NCBI GenBank assembly: GCA_040954595.2
Contig: CM082579.2
Location: 6,437,625-6,501,624 of the forward strand
Source: Balanoglossus misakiensis
Taxonomy: Eukaryota > Animalia > Hemichordata
Length of the DNA: 64,000 nt
Reading direction: 5' to 3'
In this document: one piece after another, positions 32,738 to 42,466 of the stretch
Layout of the letters: every line of letters begins with the position of its first letter
Position numbering within the stretch: position 1 is the stretch's first letter
Made by a program: the position numbers and the translations under genes
The notes under the pieces: generated by a model
The model's input: the letters and a program-made list of their open reading frames with translations, nothing else
Told to the model about the DNA's origin: nothing
Databases searched by the model: none

Positions 32738-33169
32738 ATGAAGACGACATTTCTGTTTGTAGCATTCTGCGTTGGAGTGGCAGCAGTGCAAGCTTTTGGT
32801 AAATATGATTGTTTGAATGATGAAAAATTCACTTCGTCATTGATATACAACAAAATACAAATAAAAGTACATACAATCATTTAGAAAGGCATTCCTATGT
32901 TGTCCATGCCGTTGACAAAATTTTGTCTGCGTTGAAATGCCTCACAGTGGTCGTACCCACCGTTTCCCTTCTTACTTACAGGCAATTTTAGGGACACGCC
33001 TGTTTCCGTCGTTGTTCACATGGCACCCAAAATGACCTTTCAGCAAGACTTGGTTGACGAACTGATGACTGTCGACTTCGCCAGTACAGCCGAGGTGGAC
33101 TGTTGCGACCGCGCCGCGTGTCTGGTTCGCGGGGGAAATGTTTGCGATCCGAAGTGCCCGCCATGCTGA
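32738..33169 (+). CDS. Secreted Cys-rich peptide precursor A (FGNFRDT family, 82 aa, 6 Cys in tail)
   Basis: Exons 32738-32798 + 32982-33169 (phase-1 intron): MKTTFLFVAFCVGVAAVQA-FGNFRDTPVSVVVHMAPKMTFQQDLVDELMTVDFASTAEVDCCDRAACLVRGGNVCDPKCPPC*. Absent from the ORF track; homologous to genes B-D. Confidence 0.85.
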
Positions 33170-34235
33170 GAAAGATAACAGTACGTAGGTGTCATCTTGA
33201 CAACGACTCTCATATTAACTCAACACATCTATGATTCCCTTTCGAAGAATATGTATGTGTGGTCATCTATCCAAATTCAGTCACGAAAATTACCATAACA
33301 AGTGGAGATCTTGAAACTTGCCAATATTTTTTTCACAAACTAATTCATGCAATTGTATGTCTTTCATTTCAGGAATTCAGTGGGATGAGTGATGTGCATA
33401 AGCGACTGCCAACACATCGGTTTGGAATTTTCAAGTTTCTGCTTATTTCTGTTGTCGTTTACCCACTCACCCGCAGGGGCAACTGATTATTAAAATATCA
33501 TAAACCTTATTTAAATGTGACGTGTCCTTGTCTCATCTATCTTCCTGGTTATCATCACCATTCGGATATACTTTCCCAACTGTGTGAAAGTGAAAACTTT
33601 GCAGCCGTGTTTATTGATAACGATGCCAACTTTGACATTCGCGATTGTTCAGTCGACACGTCTCTTCTTATACTGCGAGATGGTGTTCACTTTGCTTATG
33701 CTGGCAGTGACAAGCCCAAACCTGTCAAACTGCTGTTTTTCAACGACCCCTCCCCCTTACAGAGGAAGACGTCTTACATCCGACTTGCAACAAGCACACC
33801 ATCGTTCACACACCTCGACATTCAAAGCTACATTATGCCTATCGGATGAGGCAAAAAGGCCGGGTTACTGCCGCTTCGGTGATCCAGAAGTCTGGCAAAC
33901 ACGGAAATACACTGTGGTGTTACACTGTGTAAGCTTATACAAGTACGAGAATTTGTCCACTGACAGTGTAATACTTTGCACTTTTGTGCTTTTATGGGAA
34001 ATCCAAAAACACGATGTTTTCGAAAGATTTTAAAGGCATCCATAACAGAGGGCGCGCTCTACTTCGTTCAGGTACCATAATTATTCATCGACAGCATTCT
34101 CTTGAACGTGGTAAGAGTTTGGGTACAAAGCTAACTTTGGGAAAACAAAACTCTGAAACTAAGTAGACTAAGCTCATTCTATCGGGCAGTCAACTGACAT
34201 CGTCGCTGCGCATCAAAGCTACCTGAACATGATAA

Positions 34236-34565
34236 GGGGCTGGTCAGAATTAACAGGAGGGCAGGCTGTGTCTTCTGAACTGAAGTATCGTCAATGACAC
34301 TGTCTGAGACATCTCCGTTTTCAGCTAGCATCATGATATCTTCTGTGTCACTGCCAATATCGGAATCAAAATCATCATGGGTTTGTGAGCCTTTCTCTGT
34401 GACATTTCAAATATAAGAACATTTTCCGAGTCATCCTTGCACAAAAATTAGAGACCCTCCGCCAGACTCAAAATGAAGTGGCCCTCCCCCGAACCGTTGT
34501 ACGCAAAATAACGACCTTCCCCAATCGCACCAACCTTTCCCCCACTGTTAATTCTGACCAGGCCC
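34236..34565. mobile_element. PIF/Harbinger-type MITE (330 bp)
   Basis: 21-bp TIRs GGGGCTGGTCAGAATTAACAG / CTGTTAATTCTGACCAGGCCC (20/21 match), flanked on both sides by TAA (34233-34235 and 34566-34568). TAA is the canonical Harbinger target-site duplication. Confidence 0.75.
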
Positions 34566-35370
34566 TAATGGGCATCACATGCCCAAAATCAATGTAACAT
34601 AGACGGGGTTGTTTGACAGAAATCTGTGGTCGGTCCACCATTCTTTGACAAAAGTCAGAGTGGTGCTGCACGATGGCTCTTGTATCTCTCTCCTTACAAG
34701 TCAACGACATCACGTGTTTGTTCGTGGAAAATTCCTTGCACACAATACCCGTACAACCCAAACAACCACACGAATACAACTCTATATGGCAAGCAAATAA
34801 TAACCTTTATTACTCTATGTTCTTTTTGGCACGATCGCACCAAATTAAACAAAAGCAGACGGAGACGAGATGTTGCTCCACGCGTGAGTGACCAATTGTA
34901 CTGCATGGTTGGACTACAAACTTTCAGATAGGTCGTCCACGGGTGTCCATTCTGTAGGTCCGTCTCCACCTGATGGGAAAATCCAAAGAAAGTCTTGTGT
35001 GAACGATTTTAGCCGTTGTATGCCCCAGCTCACCGTCCATCCATTGACCAGAACATCACGATCATATAGCTTTTGGTTTACAGCTCTAACCAAAACTGGA
35101 AATTTCTGTTCAAAGCTCGTTCCTTTACAACGAATCTACAACGAGGACGGTGGTGCAACATGTATCGGTTGTGATACACAATTTATTCACACTGAGATGT
35201 AGGTACATTATAGTCGAGTTGCTATGGCATGCCTGCCGCTACAGAACACCCCGAAAATTAAAAGCCAAGTGTTTTTGTTTGTTTCCAGTACGTGGCTACA
35301 CATGTGCAACTGTCAGAATCCTTTTGTACAACATATCGGCGTTGTGGGATTTACCTTCAGGATGTTCCGT

Positions 35371-35849
35371 CTAACTACAGACGTCGCAATCGACAGGACA
35401 GGCGGGGCCTAAGAGAATGCAACAGGCACCTATACAACACGGACACTCGGGACTCTGCGGGGCGCCTCCTCCATTAAGAAAGACGGCAGCATCCAGAAAT
35501 TCCAGCTGCATCTGTCTATCAGGCTCCAGGTGGATCTTTATCTCCGTCTTGGTGTCGCGGAAGTTTCCTGCAGGCAGGATCAAAAATGGACTCCGTATAG
35601 TTCAAATGAGAGAATACGCGCAACTTGCTTTGTCGCATATTAGTTCATCAGCTCTAATAACGAAAGGTTCTGCTCTTTTCTGTTTCCAAGGAAACGCGAC
35701 GTATACGATGAAGTAAAACCAAGAGAAACTTCATGGGTTTATACGATGTAAATTACACTGGACAAGCCCCAAATGACTGACAATGACTTACCGAAGCACC
35801 TCACCATTACTGCCAGTCCCAACAAAAGTAATACGCACAGTGTTTTCAT
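35371..35849 (-). CDS. Secreted Cys-rich peptide precursor B (FGNFRDT family, 84 aa, 8 Cys in tail)
   Basis: Exons 35849-35792 + 35567-35371: MKTLCVLLLLGLAVMVRC-FGNFRDTKTEIKIHLEPDRQMQLEFLDAAVFLNGGGAPQSPECPCCIGACCILLGPACPVDCDVCS*. Confidence 0.87.
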
Positions 35850-36071
35850 GACTACGATCTGTCGGGGAAATGGTTTTAAAAATGACTTTGAACTGTCGTG
35901 AACGTTTACAGACGGGCGGGCAGACTGACTGGCTGATAGAGATAGAGAGAAACAATACAAATACCGAGTAATAATGCAACACATCGGGCAGAGACACGTT
36001 GACTGACAGTCAGTTGGTCTGTTGAACAGACAAATATAGGCAGGTGGATAGAGACCATTGCACAAACAGGC

Positions 36072-36139
36072 GAGAAACAGAGAGAGAGAGTGGGTGGATG
36101 AGAGAGAGAGAGACAGAGAGAGACAGTGAGAGAGACACA

Positions 36140-36189
<50 letters not shown>

Positions 36190-36220
36190 AAGACAGAGAG
36201 AGAGAGACAGAGACAGAGAA
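36072..36220. repeat. (GA/GACA)n purine-rich microsatellite in the predicted 5'-UTR intron of gene B
   Basis: Directly visible. Confidence 0.9.
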
Positions 36221-36314
36221 GTGGACTATGAGGTGAACATATATTTACCTGACCACAAGGCTTACTTTGTCTGCGGAAAGTAGACGAAGCTTACATGTCA
36301 GTTTGCGTTTGTTT

Positions 36315-36321
36315 TTTTATA
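36315..36321 (-). promoter_or_regulatory. TATA box of peptide gene B
   Basis: TATAAAA on the minus strand; non-coding exon ends at CAG|GTAAAT (36249). TCACGCA at 36332-36338. Confidence 0.6.
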
Positions 36322-37609
36322 CATTTTCCTATGCGTGAGATGCCATACCTCCTTTTTTGTTGGACGGGACTTGGTAATCGTCCCGAAACATGAAATTTAC
36401 CAAATCCTTTCATTAAATCTTTTGAATGAACAAAGATAAATGATTTTTATAGGTCTTTTTACTACGTTCCAATAACATTTCAAGAGAAGTTCCCCGAACC
36501 AAAATGTTAACGAACGGTGTTACCGATTTGTGACACGTTAATGTGTTTTACATACACCCACACTCATTTTTTACTCGTTTATTATCTTGCTAAAGCGGAA
36601 AATATATCATAAAAGCTGTGCCGTAAACGTTAAAACGTCTTTTTTCAATTACAAGTATCAGTGTGCCATTCAAGTTAAAAGCTTGATGATCTGGGTTTCA
36701 AATCATATCCAGGGCAAATAATCCTAATGAACAGTTGCCACTCTGGAGGATTTCCAGCAGAATGCTTTGTTCAGAAACTATAAACGTAAACGCTATCTTA
36801 AAACTTTGGGGCCAAGGTGACATGGCCGAAATTTATAAAAATTGCAGGGAGACATACCGATACAGCTAGTGACGAGAACAGAACAGCCAAGAACTAGCAA
36901 GTGTAACGATCGAGCCAACCCTACGTCTGATTTTTTATCAGATTGAGCTCACGTTCATGGCCCTGCCAATGGTCAGTTTAAAATCACATTTTCACCTGGC
37001 CAGGTTTTCTTTTACATTTTGTACATACAAATTGACAGACACAACGAACATATTTCACTCATCTGTTTGTGTTTTATTTATTCGTATCTCGTGTCGTTTA
37101 AGGTAATTACAATCACTGCAAAGCGGTGACAGGTGTCGTCAGGTAGAACTCACGAAATAAAAGAACCCCTCTTCGTCAGGCAATGTAGTCACACCTGTCA
37201 CAAGCTAGCCCAATTCTGAAAAAAATGACATATGTGAAGAATATGAGGTGCTAAAAAGAGAGAAGGGCAACTTTTTTATGTGACGTAGTAAAATGATTTG
37301 TGGCTCGTGTCTTGTTGCATCGGGTATTACCATTGCGGTGAATAGTCCAGCAAATGACAACAGTTCCATCTACGCAGTAACTGATGCTGTAAAGAGGCCG
37401 TGGTTTACGACGACGTAGTCGAGGCAACGACCCGCGCGAGCGGAAGATGTCAGGCGGGGTGCTATAAACTTTCAAAGAGGGTTGTACGAAACTTTGTTTG
37501 TTTGTTTGTTTGTTTGTTTGTTTCCAGTACGTGGCTATACATGTGTAACTGTCAGAATCCTTTTGTACAACATATTGGTGTTATGGGATTTACCTTTAGG
37601 ATGTTTCGT

Positions 37610-38147
37610 CTAACTACAGACGTCGCAATCGACAGGACAGAGGGGGCCTAAGAGAATGCAACAGGCACCTATACAACACGGACATTCTGGACTCCGAGCC
37701 ACCCTCGAGTCGCCTGTGCCTGTCCCCAGGAACATAATGGCGTCGACTAGATCGATCTGCATGTCTCTATCTGGCTCCAGGTGGATAGTTATTGTCGTTG
37801 GAGTGTCGCGAAAGTCCCCTACAGGTGCGAAATGCATATACCATGTATCAATTAACCCACGGCACGGACAAATCTGGTGATGCGTTGGGTAGACTTTTGA
37901 TTCTTTTGATGCCACTTTGAAGAAAACTTATTTCACATGTGATTGCGCCTAGACTTTCGAAACCGGCCGGGCCACAGACAAAGTCTGTGGCCGGGCTTAC
38001 GTGGAAAACTTTTGATGGTTATGCACTTACAACTCTAAGTAATTGTACTTCATACACATTTATAATAATACATTTGAAGTACTCACCAAAACATTTAACT
38101 GACACCACCGCCGCAGCCAAGAGAGTCAAGTACCACAAACTTCTCAT
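37610..38147 (-). CDS. Secreted Cys-rich peptide precursor C (FGDFRDT family, 89 aa, 8 Cys in tail)
   Basis: Exons 38147-38087 + 37818-37610: MRSLWYLTLLAAAVVSVKC-FGDFRDTPTTITIHLEPDRDMQIDLVDAIMFLGTGTGDSRVARSPECPCCIGACCILLGPLCPVDCDVCS*. Confidence 0.87.
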
Positions 38148-38665
38148 CGTTAAAATATTTGTGATCTGCTGTGAACCGTCTGTTCACATGTCGGCGTTGA
38201 GGGGAAAAAAGAACGGGACGCGAAATCAGCTGTTATGCAGAATACTGAGAGATACAAAAAGGCGCACACATTGCAGAGGTGCACGTGGAGGGGACCACGA
38301 ACAGAGAGGGGCGATACAAATGACGAGGTGTGAGGGGGGGGGGCATTGGGAGGAGAATAAGGGTGCTAGTGTAAGAACGATACATGAAACCCCCAATTTG
38401 AGTTGCATCTTCCGCGGAGGAATGACAGGTGTGCTGAAAAGGCAATGAACAGAGCATGCAGGAGACGCACAGGTGATCGAGTAGTGCACACACCAGGCAT
38501 TCGCAGACGATCGACGACAGATGGAAACGACAAGGGGAGGGGGGGGGGGTTCCTAAGCGATGGATGGACGAACAGACAGCACCATGGCCAGTTGACTTAC
38601 CGAACACTCGATTTGAGGAACTTCACCAGCAGAAAGTTGATGAATGTCCAGCTCCACTGGTCGTC

Positions 38666-38672
38666 TTTTATA
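38666..38672 (-). promoter_or_regulatory. TATA box of peptide gene C
   Basis: TATAAAA on the minus strand; non-coding exon ends at TCG|GTAAGT (38601). TCACGTGAC at 38683-38691. Confidence 0.6.
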
Positions 38673-39192
38673 TGCATTTCAAGTCACGTGAAAAATCCCT
38701 CCTCTTGTTTTTTTTTTTCTTTTTTTTTCGAGGAATATTCGGTCTAATGAATCAACAATACTGACAAATTCAGCGCTGGTTGATATGTAAGGGTTTTGCG
38801 TGACACCATAACTCAAAGTTGACGGTGACACCTCAATTTTTTTCGCGACGACTGGGTTCAAATTTAATTGAAATCATGCAGGATATTATTTGAGTAACAA
38901 ACAAAGCCTACCAGAGAAATCGATTTTTACAAAAAAAAAAGAAAAGAAAAATTCAAGACTGAGATCTGATAACTGTTCATATGCAAAAATAAAAGTTTTG
39001 GCTTCGAGACAAGTGAGTCTCTCGAACACCTCTCCTATTCTATGAGACAAATATTACGTGATTGAATTTGAGAGAAATCAGTCGTTTTGGAACTCATATA
39101 GTACTTTTTCTGGTCATGAATTTAATATTTGTGCAATTTTCAGATATTCATAGCGACAAGATTAACCTCAAATTCTCAAAATACATGTATGT

Positions 39193-39245
39193 GTTTGTTT
39201 GTTTGTTTGTTTGTTTGTTTGTTTGTTTGTTTGTTTGTTTGTTTT
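39193..39245. repeat. (GTTT)n microsatellite
   Basis: Directly visible; a shorter copy lies at about 37493-37523. Confidence 0.9.
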
Positions 39246-41059
39246 TATCTTCCATACGTCGCGTAAGAAACATTCCTCCCTGATCCTGATTGTGGCGGAG
39301 TTGGAATTTTATTATAATAGTTCTTTTAACGTTTTATAAGAACAAACTGAAAGAGGAAATCCATCCCCGATCAACCATTTGTTTCTGCTGTTCACAGAGA
39401 ATCTGGTCTGGCGCATGCGCATCATGTGACGATAGAGGCGCTTTAATAACCGGCCGACTTCAACGTTCCCATGACCGACATCCGCAACTTTATCATCACG
39501 TGACTTCGGGTTGCAAAACTCGGTTTACGAGCTTACTGAAGTCATAACGGGCACCAGAAACACATATAACACACCAACCCTTGTTGCCACAATAAAGAGA
39601 ACAATTTATTGCGATAGCATGCAAGGTTTTCGATAGGCATGAATCACACGCGTCATCAAATTTATTTTATGCAGCATTTACATGCGAGTGCGCCAACTTC
39701 CCCAACCAAACTATTATTCGTTCCATTATGCGTAATAATTATGTATGCGCTTGTACCAGGGGGAAAAAGTAAAATGCCAAGTCATGCGATTTCAATGATG
39801 GTAGTACGTATGGGCGTTGCAATTTTCCTGACGAAAGAATAGTTCAACGCTTCGAAATTATCAAGACTCCACTTATATATGATGCGTTATAGCACGGTCA
39901 CTCGGTGGTGACCGTGGTAACAGTGATCAAGTCAATAGAAGGATTTGAAATCAACCCTGCACTTCATTTCATTTGAATGACAGAAAATCTGCAGTTCGAT
40001 CTTCCATTTGCGTTGCCCTTTATTTATTTTCAATCAGTGCGTCAAAACTCTTATTTTTATTCATAAATGTTTCAACCATTTTGAATAATGACTGAAACCG
40101 TGGGCTGGTGTTTTCGTGGAAATCCTTTTATGGGAATTTGAATAGTCACGTTTTATGCTCTTTGAAAATACAGTTAACACATGGCTGTGGATAACTAAAC
40201 TGTATATCATTTTATCAGTAGGTCAGCATTAACCCTTCTAAAATATAAAATGTGAGAAATCGCAATCTGGAGAGAAATAATGGCCCTTCAAACCATTGTG
40301 AGGGTATTTTCAAAACAGTTTTGAATTAAACTGATATTCAGAGATAACTTTAACATAATACGACCGCAACATTGCTCATACCTGCAGCGCAGGCCACTGC
40401 AAACTGCATGGTCTCAGATTCCTGCAAATTTCGATATATTTCCGAACTGTAAGGGCATTGATCTGTTATGTGGCTTACACCTGTGTCAAAAGGCATATTT
40501 CGGTGACGTGCAAAATAAGGTGATTTCTTTGTGTGTGTCCTTAAAGACAGAGGTGACCAGTGCTATTGTCTTGGAGCAAGCACCTGCAGTAAGACAGAGA
40601 GTGTTTTGTTCTCTCGTCAAGAAATGTTGCCCCTTTAATTCCAGTAACTCGTCTGATTAAGGTACCACAGCACAGGGAAGAAGCGATCCTACACGAATAC
40701 ACATTCAAAGCATCGCCACTGGGCATCATTTGAAGCCACGTCGTGTAGAATGAACCGAGGTTCTTTTTTTCATTCTTTCTGACAGTGCTGGTGAGGCAGG
40801 CGTCACGTGATCACACCAACTAAGTGGCGTTACTAATTTCATGAATAGCTGTCGACATTCTAGCTGGACAATAACTGGATCTCAGCCGTCATATCTAACG
40901 CCGAACAGTTTTTTCATCAATTCCTGCTTCGAATCAAAAATGACTATATAATCTGGGTTCATAGCAACCGCATTACTTTACTTGTGTCGGTGAATGTATA
41001 CCAGTCCGTTTCCTTAGCCTTTTCTATGCTAACAATTTAAAAGATCATTTGCGTAAATA

Positions 41060-41257
41060 CAGTCAAAATTGTCTATAGCGGCGAGTCGAGGGACTTTCCT
41101 AAACCGTACTTTATAGACAGGTGGTCTTTATGGACATGCCAATTAATGTGCATGTAAATTACATAGGGACTGTGTCGAAGTAGCCTCTATGATAGACAAG
41201 CATAGAGAGTGAGTGCTCTGCTGTCTATGATACAAGTATTGAACACACGTTTAACTG
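41060..41257. mobile_element. Degenerate Tc1/mariner-pogo-type MITE
   Basis: TA|CAGTCAAA…TTTAACTG|TA: TA flanks and short imperfect CAGT-starting TIRs, with internal repeated TATAGACA-like motifs. Confidence 0.4.
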
Positions 41258-41740
41258 TAGGTCATAATGATGTGGTGCATGGGAGAGACGCCCAACTAAT
41301 TATGATAAATGATCAACCAGAGAGAGAGAGAGACAGAGAGACAGAGAGCGTAATATTTCGTTAACATATTTCTACGTCATTTATTAAAAGGTTGTTTTCA
41401 TGATGTTACAGACAAAAAATACGATGTCACGAAAACACAAGAACGTAAACGGCGCTTCGTACGTTTCTCTCCATGGAACACAGTGACTCCTGCGGATCAA
41501 GACAGAAAGAGAAGCTACGTTAGAGATGTATACGAATGCCACAGAAGCATTCAGGGGGTGTGGGGACACAAATTATATTATACCAGTATATTGATGGTGT
41601 AAATCACGCTATTTGATTGGTCGAGACACGACACGTGACCGTGATATATTAGCCATATACCACAGTCATATATCATAGTTAAAGAAAATGCCTTTTTAAA
41701 ATGTTTTATGCAAAGTTTCAATATACTGGCATAATATAAT

Positions 41741-41883
41741 AGCAATAAAACACCCCCAGCCATGGTATACCACTCGATTTTGACCAGTTCAACTCCATAT
41801 ACGCACTCGCTATCGCTCGTGCGTATATGTCGTGAACTGGTCAAAATCTCGTGATATACCATGGCTGGGGGTGTTTTATTGCT
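41741..41883. repeat. Long imperfect palindrome (hairpin), probably the terminus of a non-autonomous DNA element
   Basis: 29-bp perfect outer arms AGCAATAAAACACCCCCAGCCATGGTATA, then 16-bp and 10-bp paired segments separated by small internal loops. Confidence 0.85.
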
Positions 41884-42048
41884 TAAATACACGATAATAT
41901 AACAAGAAATTGAAAATTCATGGAACAGTCCAGTGAAAAATCCGAATGGGCATCGGAAGAAGCAGGAGGTCTGGGTGACCGAGACTATAGGCCCATGGGG
42001 TAGATAACGCAAAACGAATGCTAACCAGAAGTAAATAGCCCATTTACC

Positions 42049-42466
42049 TTAGGCTGCGGCATGGCATTCACCGCAAATTTCTGGCCCAAGAATCATGCAA
42101 CAGTAGCGGTCATCGCACGGGCAAGCGTGCTCTCCCGGCCCTGCTCCGCCGAATTCGATACTGAACAGGCCATTCAGCAACTTCTTCTCAACAGTCGGGC
42201 TCGGCTTCAAATCGATGGACAGAACGACAGGGGTGTCGCGGAAATTACCTACCAAAAGAAACAAGTGTTTAGGACATTTATAACACCAGACCTCAGGTAA
42301 AATTACGCTTTACAGCCAGAACGAGTGCGAGCACAAACAGACGACAAGAGAACATTGTCGATGTCGAGTGACCGTCCGAGGATTCCTCTATCGGCGTCTA
42401 CTCACCGAAACTTTCAACCGTCACGATAACGGCGCAGCAAACAACAAGAATCCACAGAGTTCTCAT
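42049..42466 (-). CDS. Secreted Cys-rich peptide precursor D (FGNFRDT family, 86 aa, 6 Cys in tail)
   Basis: Exons 42466-42406 + 42248-42049: MRTLWILVVCCAVIVTVES-FGNFRDTPVVLSIDLKPSPTVEKKLLNGLFSIEFGGAGPGEHACPCDDRYCCMILGPEICGECHAAA*. Confidence 0.86.

Follow-up and report, generated by a model that had tools for sequence, protein, structure and literature searches.

Which cysteines pair with each other in a small secreted protein, and can the answer be read from the cysteines that its paralogues have lost? This question is raised by a cluster of four paralogous genes (A, plus strand; B, C, and D, minus strand) in a 64,000-nucleotide window of the genome of the hemichordate Balanoglossus misakiensis (contig CM082579.2, positions 6,437,625 to 6,501,624; coordinates below are those of the window). 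Each gene ends in a Cys-rich tail. The tails of B and C have eight cysteines in the order C-CC-CC-C-C-C, here numbered C1 to C8, and those of A and D have six: C1 and C4 are missing from A, and C3 and C8 from D, so that the losses are reciprocal and disjoint; the other four, C2, C5, C6, and C7, are kept throughout. The best reading, which we hold with moderate confidence, is that A–D are secreted mini-proteins in which C1–C4 and C3–C8 would be optional bonds over a core of two bonds. That the tails are disulfide-bonded in some pattern is highly probable. The tails and the first bases of their Cys codons are as follows:

33095..33166, plus strand: Cys tail of gene A (C2, C3, C5, C6, C7, C8), Cys codons at 33101, 33104, 33119, 33143, 33155, 33164
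35445-35374, minus strand: 8-Cys tail of gene B, Cys codons at 35445, 35439, 35436, 35424, 35421, 35400, 35388, 35379
37684-37613, minus strand: 8-Cys tail of gene C, Cys codons at 37684, 37678, 37675, 37663, 37660, 37639, 37627, 37618
42123-42052, minus strand: 6-Cys tail of gene D, Cys codons at 42123, 42117, 42102, 42099, 42075, 42066

The cysteines of A, B, C, and D number 6, 8, 8, and 6, always an even count. At the lost columns A has Val (C1, 33095) and Ala (C4, 33116), and D has Asp (C3, 42114) and Ala (C8, 42057); because each of these codons is two to three base changes away from a Cys codon, only the end states of the change are visible. The distance from the C1 column to the stop codon is exactly 24 codons in all four genes, the C1–C5 columns are gapless, and an invariant Gly lies within the C5–C6 loop. 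In a three-way posterior alignment of the pair hidden Markov model style with BLOSUM62, all 12 cysteines of A and D fall at the columns assigned in a preliminary description of this locus, with posteriors of 0.77–1.00, and the tails are as quoted there. When Cys is scored neutrally with a gap score of −8, the C1–C5 mappings hold at 0.92–0.99 and the last Cys of D maps to C7 at 0.89; with neutral Cys and a gap score of −5, every mapping is weaker (0.06–0.87). At the DNA level, the register of the last two cysteines of D is undecided (5/15 identical bases outside the Cys codons as C6/C7 vs. 4/12 as C7/C8), and they are taken as C6/C7 because the three-way protein alignment decides for that register. 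Placing the cysteines of A so that C5, and not C4, is the missing one reached 0.19–0.23 pairwise; this alternative was rejected, having fallen to 0.10 or less once D was added (BLOSUM62). Gene A ends in Cys-Pro-Pro-Cys (33155-33166, plus strand), a sequence through which the short helix predicted at C7–C8 of B could not extend; the end of the tail therefore likely differs in shape between the paralogues.

Are the four genes paralogous apart from their cysteines? The intron positions are common to A–D and confirm paralogy independently of Cys. The exons and introns are:

32738..32798, plus strand: signal-peptide exon of gene A, 20 codons plus one base, phase-1 GT donor, with a predicted join to exon 2
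32982..33180, plus strand: exon 2 of gene A, stop codon ending at 33169, 11 bases of 3′ untranslated region (UTR), then GT
33181..33372, plus strand: 3′ UTR intron of gene A, GT..AG, skipped by a contig of the run X3 (record 14; see below)
35792..35849, minus strand: signal-peptide exon of gene B, 19 codons plus one base
35355..35567, minus strand: exon 2 of gene B, stop codon 35373-35371
34970..35354, minus strand: 3′ UTR intron of gene B, GT..AG, skipped by an X3 contig (record 15)
38087..38147, minus strand: signal-peptide exon of gene C
37594..37818, minus strand: exon 2 of gene C, stop codon 37612-37610
42406..42466, minus strand: signal-peptide exon of gene D
42048..42248, minus strand: exon 2 of gene D, stop codon 42051-42049, GT donor 42047; an X3 contig (record 17) covers 42047-42231

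In this common plan, a hydrophobic exon of 19–20 codons ends with Phe plus one base at a GT donor, giving a phase-1 intron; exon 2 follows an AG acceptor, starts with the motif G[ND]FRDT, and carries the 24-codon Cys tail at its end; and a second GT donor lies 1–16 bases 3′ of the stop codon in all four genes. All four signal exons encode a basic n-region and a hydrophobic core (best 10-residue mean hydropathy 2.4–3.6, own script), and all four predicted proteins appear to have a cleavable N-terminal signal peptide. Ahead of the conserved Phe, Val stands at −3 in all four and a small residue at −1 (Ala/Cys/Cys/Ser, Ala being that of gene A); the predicted mature chain therefore starts at the common motif and has 63–70 residues, the exon-2 peptides having 62–69. 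Within the latter, the motif is followed by a predicted alternating hydrophobic strand, a predicted amphipathic helix, a variable linker, and the Cys tail. The exon-2 peptides are acidic, with net charges of −4 to −7. Basic cleavage sites common to A–D are absent (RVAR is found in C only and KK in D only), and the protein would stay whole because such a site is not shared. A fifth copy was not found in the 64-kb window by profile and pattern searches, which gave these four copies only. Taken together, A–D apparently form an undescribed small family of secreted proteins with a real pattern of cysteines.

How would such a pattern arise? In the mechanism that we favour, the protein would be secreted, with the signal cut ahead of the motif Phe-Gly-Asn/Asp-Phe-Arg-Asp-Thr, and a strand and an amphipathic helix would precede the tail. 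Oxidative folding would then form an intrachain core of two bonds among C2, C5, C6, and C7, to which C1–C4 (absent in A) and C3–C8 (absent in D) may be added. Once one partner Cys had mutated, the orphan thiol would be purged by selection, and losses would come in pairs. Reading disulfides from paired gain and loss of Cys among paralogues is a published rule, applied to the nematode ZP-C domain with reshuffling as a rare event (PMC7456536, in excerpt). That domain is unrelated and large, and the same excerpt draws on 1,783 sequences and on structures already known, whereas three independent sequences and no structure are at hand here. The tandem-loss rule is a standard method of inference, and no question of long standing is opened to testing here.

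Under strict paired loss, the 105 possible pairing patterns of eight cysteines are reduced to three, which differ in the core. The preliminary description had proposed an invariant C2/C5/C6/C7 core; the four cysteines are indeed kept in all four genes, but their pairing is not fixed among these three options. A core of C2–C7 and C5–C6 is tentatively favoured, C2–C6 with C5–C7 is a possible second choice, and C2–C5 with C6–C7 is unlikely.

Are the cysteines constrained at all? At positions other than Cys, identity is 13/53, 18/56, and 16/54 (25–32%), against six of eight cysteines kept (P=0.011); the cysteines of the tails are constrained above background. The tails of B and C differ at 2/75 bases, but over the first 96 bases of the coding sequence the two genes differ at 34. 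The similarity extends beyond the tail, through the UTR and into the intron, in the following tract:

35274..35445, minus strand: B/C high-identity tract of about 170 bases covering the tail, the 3′ UTR, and the start of the intron, with its gene C counterpart at about 37513-37684

Identity over this tract is 90–100%, with 27–30 of 30 bases identical per block, and gene conversion is the likely origin as judged from the sequences. The tails being nearly identical, B and C are counted as one sequence.

Can the geometry of the tail choose among the patterns? AlphaFold2 models were of low confidence (mean predicted local distance difference test [pLDDT] 58.9 and predicted template modelling score [pTM] 0.25 with B first; 56.6 and 0.28 with D first); both have a helix at 18–32 and a helix over C4–C5. 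Our own torsion-space annealing used the backbone, CB, SG, and one side-chain bead without solvent, and its energies are crude. Of four runs each in B without restraint, the three strict patterns closed in 1, 3, and 2, and their three-bond versions closed in 3–5 of 8 runs each in A and D. Once the AlphaFold2 helix was imposed on B, the core C2–C7/C5–C6 closed in 6/9 runs, C2–C6/C5–C7 in 1/9 (with the lowest energy), and C2–C5/C6–C7 in 0/9. Geometry leans slightly against C6–C7, whose loop (i,i+3 or i,i+4) would also be short.

Several points weigh against the reading of C1–C4 and C3–C8 as optional bonds over a two-bond core. With neutral Cys and a gap score of −8, the mappings of C6 of A/D and C7/C8 of A drop to 0.02 or less, because single-residue indels are needed; the homology of C6–C8 across the paralogues rests on the cysteines themselves, together with one or two such indels. 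If cysteines are lost independently at the observed rate of 0.25, even counts in both lineages are expected with P=0.20, and the pairing of the losses itself is not beyond chance; at the same rate, exactly two losses in each lineage, disjoint, would come with P=0.064. Because B and C count once, two independent events carry the whole argument. The word loss is itself only partly polarised, the tree being unrooted: one of the events could be a gain, and either way a paired change took place on one branch. Since C2 (for C3) and C5 (for C4) are adjacent to lost cysteines and may re-pair, 12 patterns are possible instead of three. In published 4-bond proteins with many homologues, methods built on this rule recovered 31–48% of bonds vs. 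14% at random, and 10–29% of whole patterns vs. 1% at random (PMC4498770, Table 4, in excerpt); a clean co-loss is probably better than this benchmark, because the benchmark figures include bonds without signal. The imposed helix restraint was taken from models of mean pLDDT 57–59, and in B with that helix all eight re-paired patterns run (of nine) closed, in 1–6 of 9 runs each. In A and D the re-paired patterns closed in 4/4 cases, and the lowest energies were theirs (11.64, 9.93). In all, 10 of the 11 patterns run closed in B and 10/10 in A and D; because strict and re-paired patterns both close, geometry neither confirms nor excludes the connectivity and picks no pattern. The inference is reasonable but under-determined, and weaker than first stated: C1–C4 and C3–C8 as optional disulfides remain the simplest reading, with two events behind it and 12 patterns open once re-pairing is allowed.

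The rival that survives best, although rather unlikely, is that the proteins are secreted and disulfide-bonded but the lost cysteines were not partners: in the 8-Cys form there would be C8–C2 and/or C1–C5 bonds, for example in the nested ladder C2–C8, C3–C7, C5–C6 or in C1–C5, C2–C6, C4–C7, and after two losses the two orphans, each beside a lost Cys, would have re-paired. A one-residue swap of partner would be cheap, C2C3 and C4C5 being adjacent, and among five patterns tried by annealing the lowest energy belonged to the nested ladder in A and to C1–C5/C2–C6/C4–C7 in D, though these crude energies are only a few units apart. Reshuffling is documented in Cys-dense extracellular domains, and the same source, as excerpted, calls it rare (PMC7456536); moreover, re-pairing needs one extra event per lineage. 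An improbable rival makes the optional pairs interchain bonds of a homo- or heterodimer (e.g., C1–C4′ and C4–C1′) with the strand-helix N-terminal part as the interface. Symmetric interchain bonds would presumably also be lost in pairs, and the strand and amphipathic helix of each paralogue could pair between chains, but the even Cys counts require no partner chain. The weakest, very improbable, is a tail that binds metal (Zn, Cu) via Cys, Asp, and His rather than forming disulfides: CxC, CC, and CxxC motifs are metallothionein-like, and Asp at C3 and His right after C7 (CxxCH) in D are possible ligands, but the signal peptides of all four genes would route the proteins via the oxidising endoplasmic reticulum, C1 and C4 of A have changed to the non-ligands Val and Ala, and Cys makes up just 6–8 of 62–69 residues. 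The claim that paired loss favours disulfides over metal has little force by itself, and in D an Asp stands in place of C3 and a new His follows C7; the case against metal lies mainly in the signal peptides.

Do A–D resemble a known system? They work as other secreted peptides rich in disulfides do, but their Cys order is unusual. The inhibitor cystine knot with a fourth bond, of the omega-agatoxin IVA type, pairs C1–C4, C2–C5, C3–C8, and C6–C7. This numbering is one of the three strict-paired-loss patterns, and D alone is ordered C-C-CC-C-C, but the C-x1-C start and the 2–3 residues between C6 and C7 are unlike a knottin, and the pattern closed in 0/9 runs in B with the predicted helix. The knottin loop consensus is C-x3-7-C-x3-6-C-x0-5-C-x1-4-C-x4-13-C, while D has C-x1-C-x4-C-x0-C-x7-C-x2-C, with 3/5 loops outside this range. 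In hepcidin the cysteines run C-CC-CC-C-CC, and a furin site precedes the mature peptide; here the last three cysteines are separate (C-x3-C-x2-C), and RxxR is found in 1/4 genes only (C). Metallothioneins are cytosolic, have no signal peptide, and contain about 30% Cys along the whole chain, unlike A–D with 4/4 signal exons and cysteines (6–8 of 62–69 residues) all in the last 24. In insulin-like peptides, including the ambulacrarian ones, two cysteines lie in an N-terminal B chain and a C-peptide is cleaved out; here the first 40 residues of every exon 2 are without Cys, and basic sites are not common. The c-type heme proteins have a conserved CxxCH motif, which is found here in 1/4 genes only (D). 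This motif (42061-42075, minus strand), absent in A–C, gave a weak PDB match to a multi-heme protein at E 2.7, likely by chance. The waterborne protein pheromones Euplotes Er/En and Aplysia attractin are small, acidic, helical, secreted, and disulfide-stapled, with a bond number variable among relatives; they have another Cys order, no sequence similarity to them was detected among the PDB sequences, and they are an analogy only.

Conotoxin/teretoxin-type precursors have in common with A–D a signal peptide, a Cys-rich C-terminal tail, and tandem divergent paralogues on a kept Cys scaffold. They differ in that A–D have no common basic site before the tail and their best-conserved part is the predicted mature N-terminus; nothing points to venom. 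The frameworks of these peptides are written in the same C/CC notation (PMC6471084, Table 1, in excerpt), where conotoxin framework XI (I-superfamily) is C-C-CC-CC-C-C, an order unlike that of B and C. As a stand-alone framework, C-CC-CC-C-C-C was not found; in excerpts of PMC6471084, PMC4494067, and PMC6891753 it occurs only within longer 10–12-Cys or differently starting frameworks, and the tail strings of A–D are absent from the papers carrying this string, as far as their excerpts go.

Does the family exist elsewhere? Sequence, profile, metagenome, Pfam, and PDB searches found no true homologue or family; restriction to one lineage is not proven by this, because small unannotated genes are easily missed. 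Word searches of proteins of about 34–121 residues gave 45 candidates with the family alignment, none at E≤1, and no candidate with three common words for D alone. Among 1,835,955,588 representatives, the sole profile match at E≤0.001 was a 1,302-residue protist repeat protein, rejected: the match lay at profile positions 4–27, outside the Cys tail, and was the sum of six stretches. A first metagenome scan confirmed none of 212 stretches, and a second gave 1/344, rejected because its 16 matching residues are read from a frame opposite an open reading frame for a bacterial membrane protein. Pfam returned no family for the four proteins at E≤10, and the PDB sequences no match except the one through the CxxCH of D. 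The best ESM Atlas hit, to lantibiotic clusters, scored 0.83, below the usable score, and was discarded; a second search also had no usable match. Foldseek gave no matches and VIA two rows at Z 2.2 and then none, results of low-confidence models that say nothing on fold novelty. The four N-terminal motif strings are absent from the literature searched. Among the papers retrieved on hemichordate secreted peptides, judged by titles and abstract beginnings, none deals with such a family; marker tables of single-cell studies in hemichordates could list the genes.

What may the proteins do? A role as extracellular protein-binding ligand or inhibitor, in defence, mucus, or pheromone-like signalling, is plausible though tentative; it is favoured because the N-terminal motif is conserved, the tail diverges, the genes have expanded in tandem, and the peptides are acidic. 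A cationic membrane-lytic peptide is not indicated, because all four are acidic. Doubtful as it stands is a wider picture of an enteropneust-restricted signalling/defence family on a new scaffold, with a two-bond core plus either or both of the staples C1–C4 and C3–C8, and an N-terminal motif that may engage a receptor or enzyme; A, D, and B/C would then represent one new fold in natural versions with three, three, and four bonds. Hemichordate secreted peptides are barely described. If the favoured connectivity is true, the cluster would supply a small disulfide scaffold that is new, includes its own variants, and can be mapped cheaply. The tandem-loss rule could also be tested on it, cleanly and on a small scale, in a Cys-dense tail of the kind in which re-pairing comes most easily.

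Are the genes expressed? Three runs of one sample cover the stretch, and a program guessed the kind of all three as DNA. In the run X3, with cover in 14/30 bins, record 14 jumps from 33180 to 33373 in gene A and record 15 from 35353 to 34967 in gene B, both jumps being exact GT-AG introns (with a two-base ambiguity in B). Because its contigs skip exact GT-AG introns, X3 is likely a transcriptome. Record 15 ends at 35566, beside the predicted acceptor of B, with 85 further letters beyond, and record 17 covers D as far as the donor. These contigs indicate that A and B are transcribed and spliced at their 3′ UTR introns in this one sample, D being covered by a contig; the junction between signal exon and exon 2 is a predicted one, outside the X3 rows listed. 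Gene C has no X3 cover, which is no evidence of its silence.

The X3 contig over D (42047-42231, minus strand) differs by three letters and three gap letters, possibly an extra codon in another allele; the placement of the gap letters could matter if they lie between C6 and C7. Alleles in X1/X2 change exon 2 of gene C at 37753 (Asp23 to Asn) and 37814 (Asp2 to Glu). No Cys codon is hit by any of the 40 allelic differences listed, to which 312 more are to be added.

The window consists of animal genomic DNA in which introns are short. An exon of the neighbouring SLC25A43 gene matches Ptychodera flava at 89% identity and Glandiceps talaboti at 79%, and the next best hit reaches 62%; a ptychoderid acorn worm is therefore the likely host. 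The genes flanking the cluster look like ANKRD10, with ankyrin repeats, and STARD13, of the START/RhoGAP type. Neighbours within 706-58000 include ARM/TIR-like, 2-oxoglutarate oxygenase-like, iduronate-sulfatase-like, SLC25A43, ANKRD10-like, and STARD13-like genes, of which only SLC25A43 was checked by search; they are useful anchors for locating an orthologous cluster. Just downstream of gene D, a very high-copy element at 41570-41890 has a summed contig depth near 100,000 and a 143-base inverted repeat (41741-41883); it is partly absent in one allele and resembles a miniature inverted-repeat transposable element.

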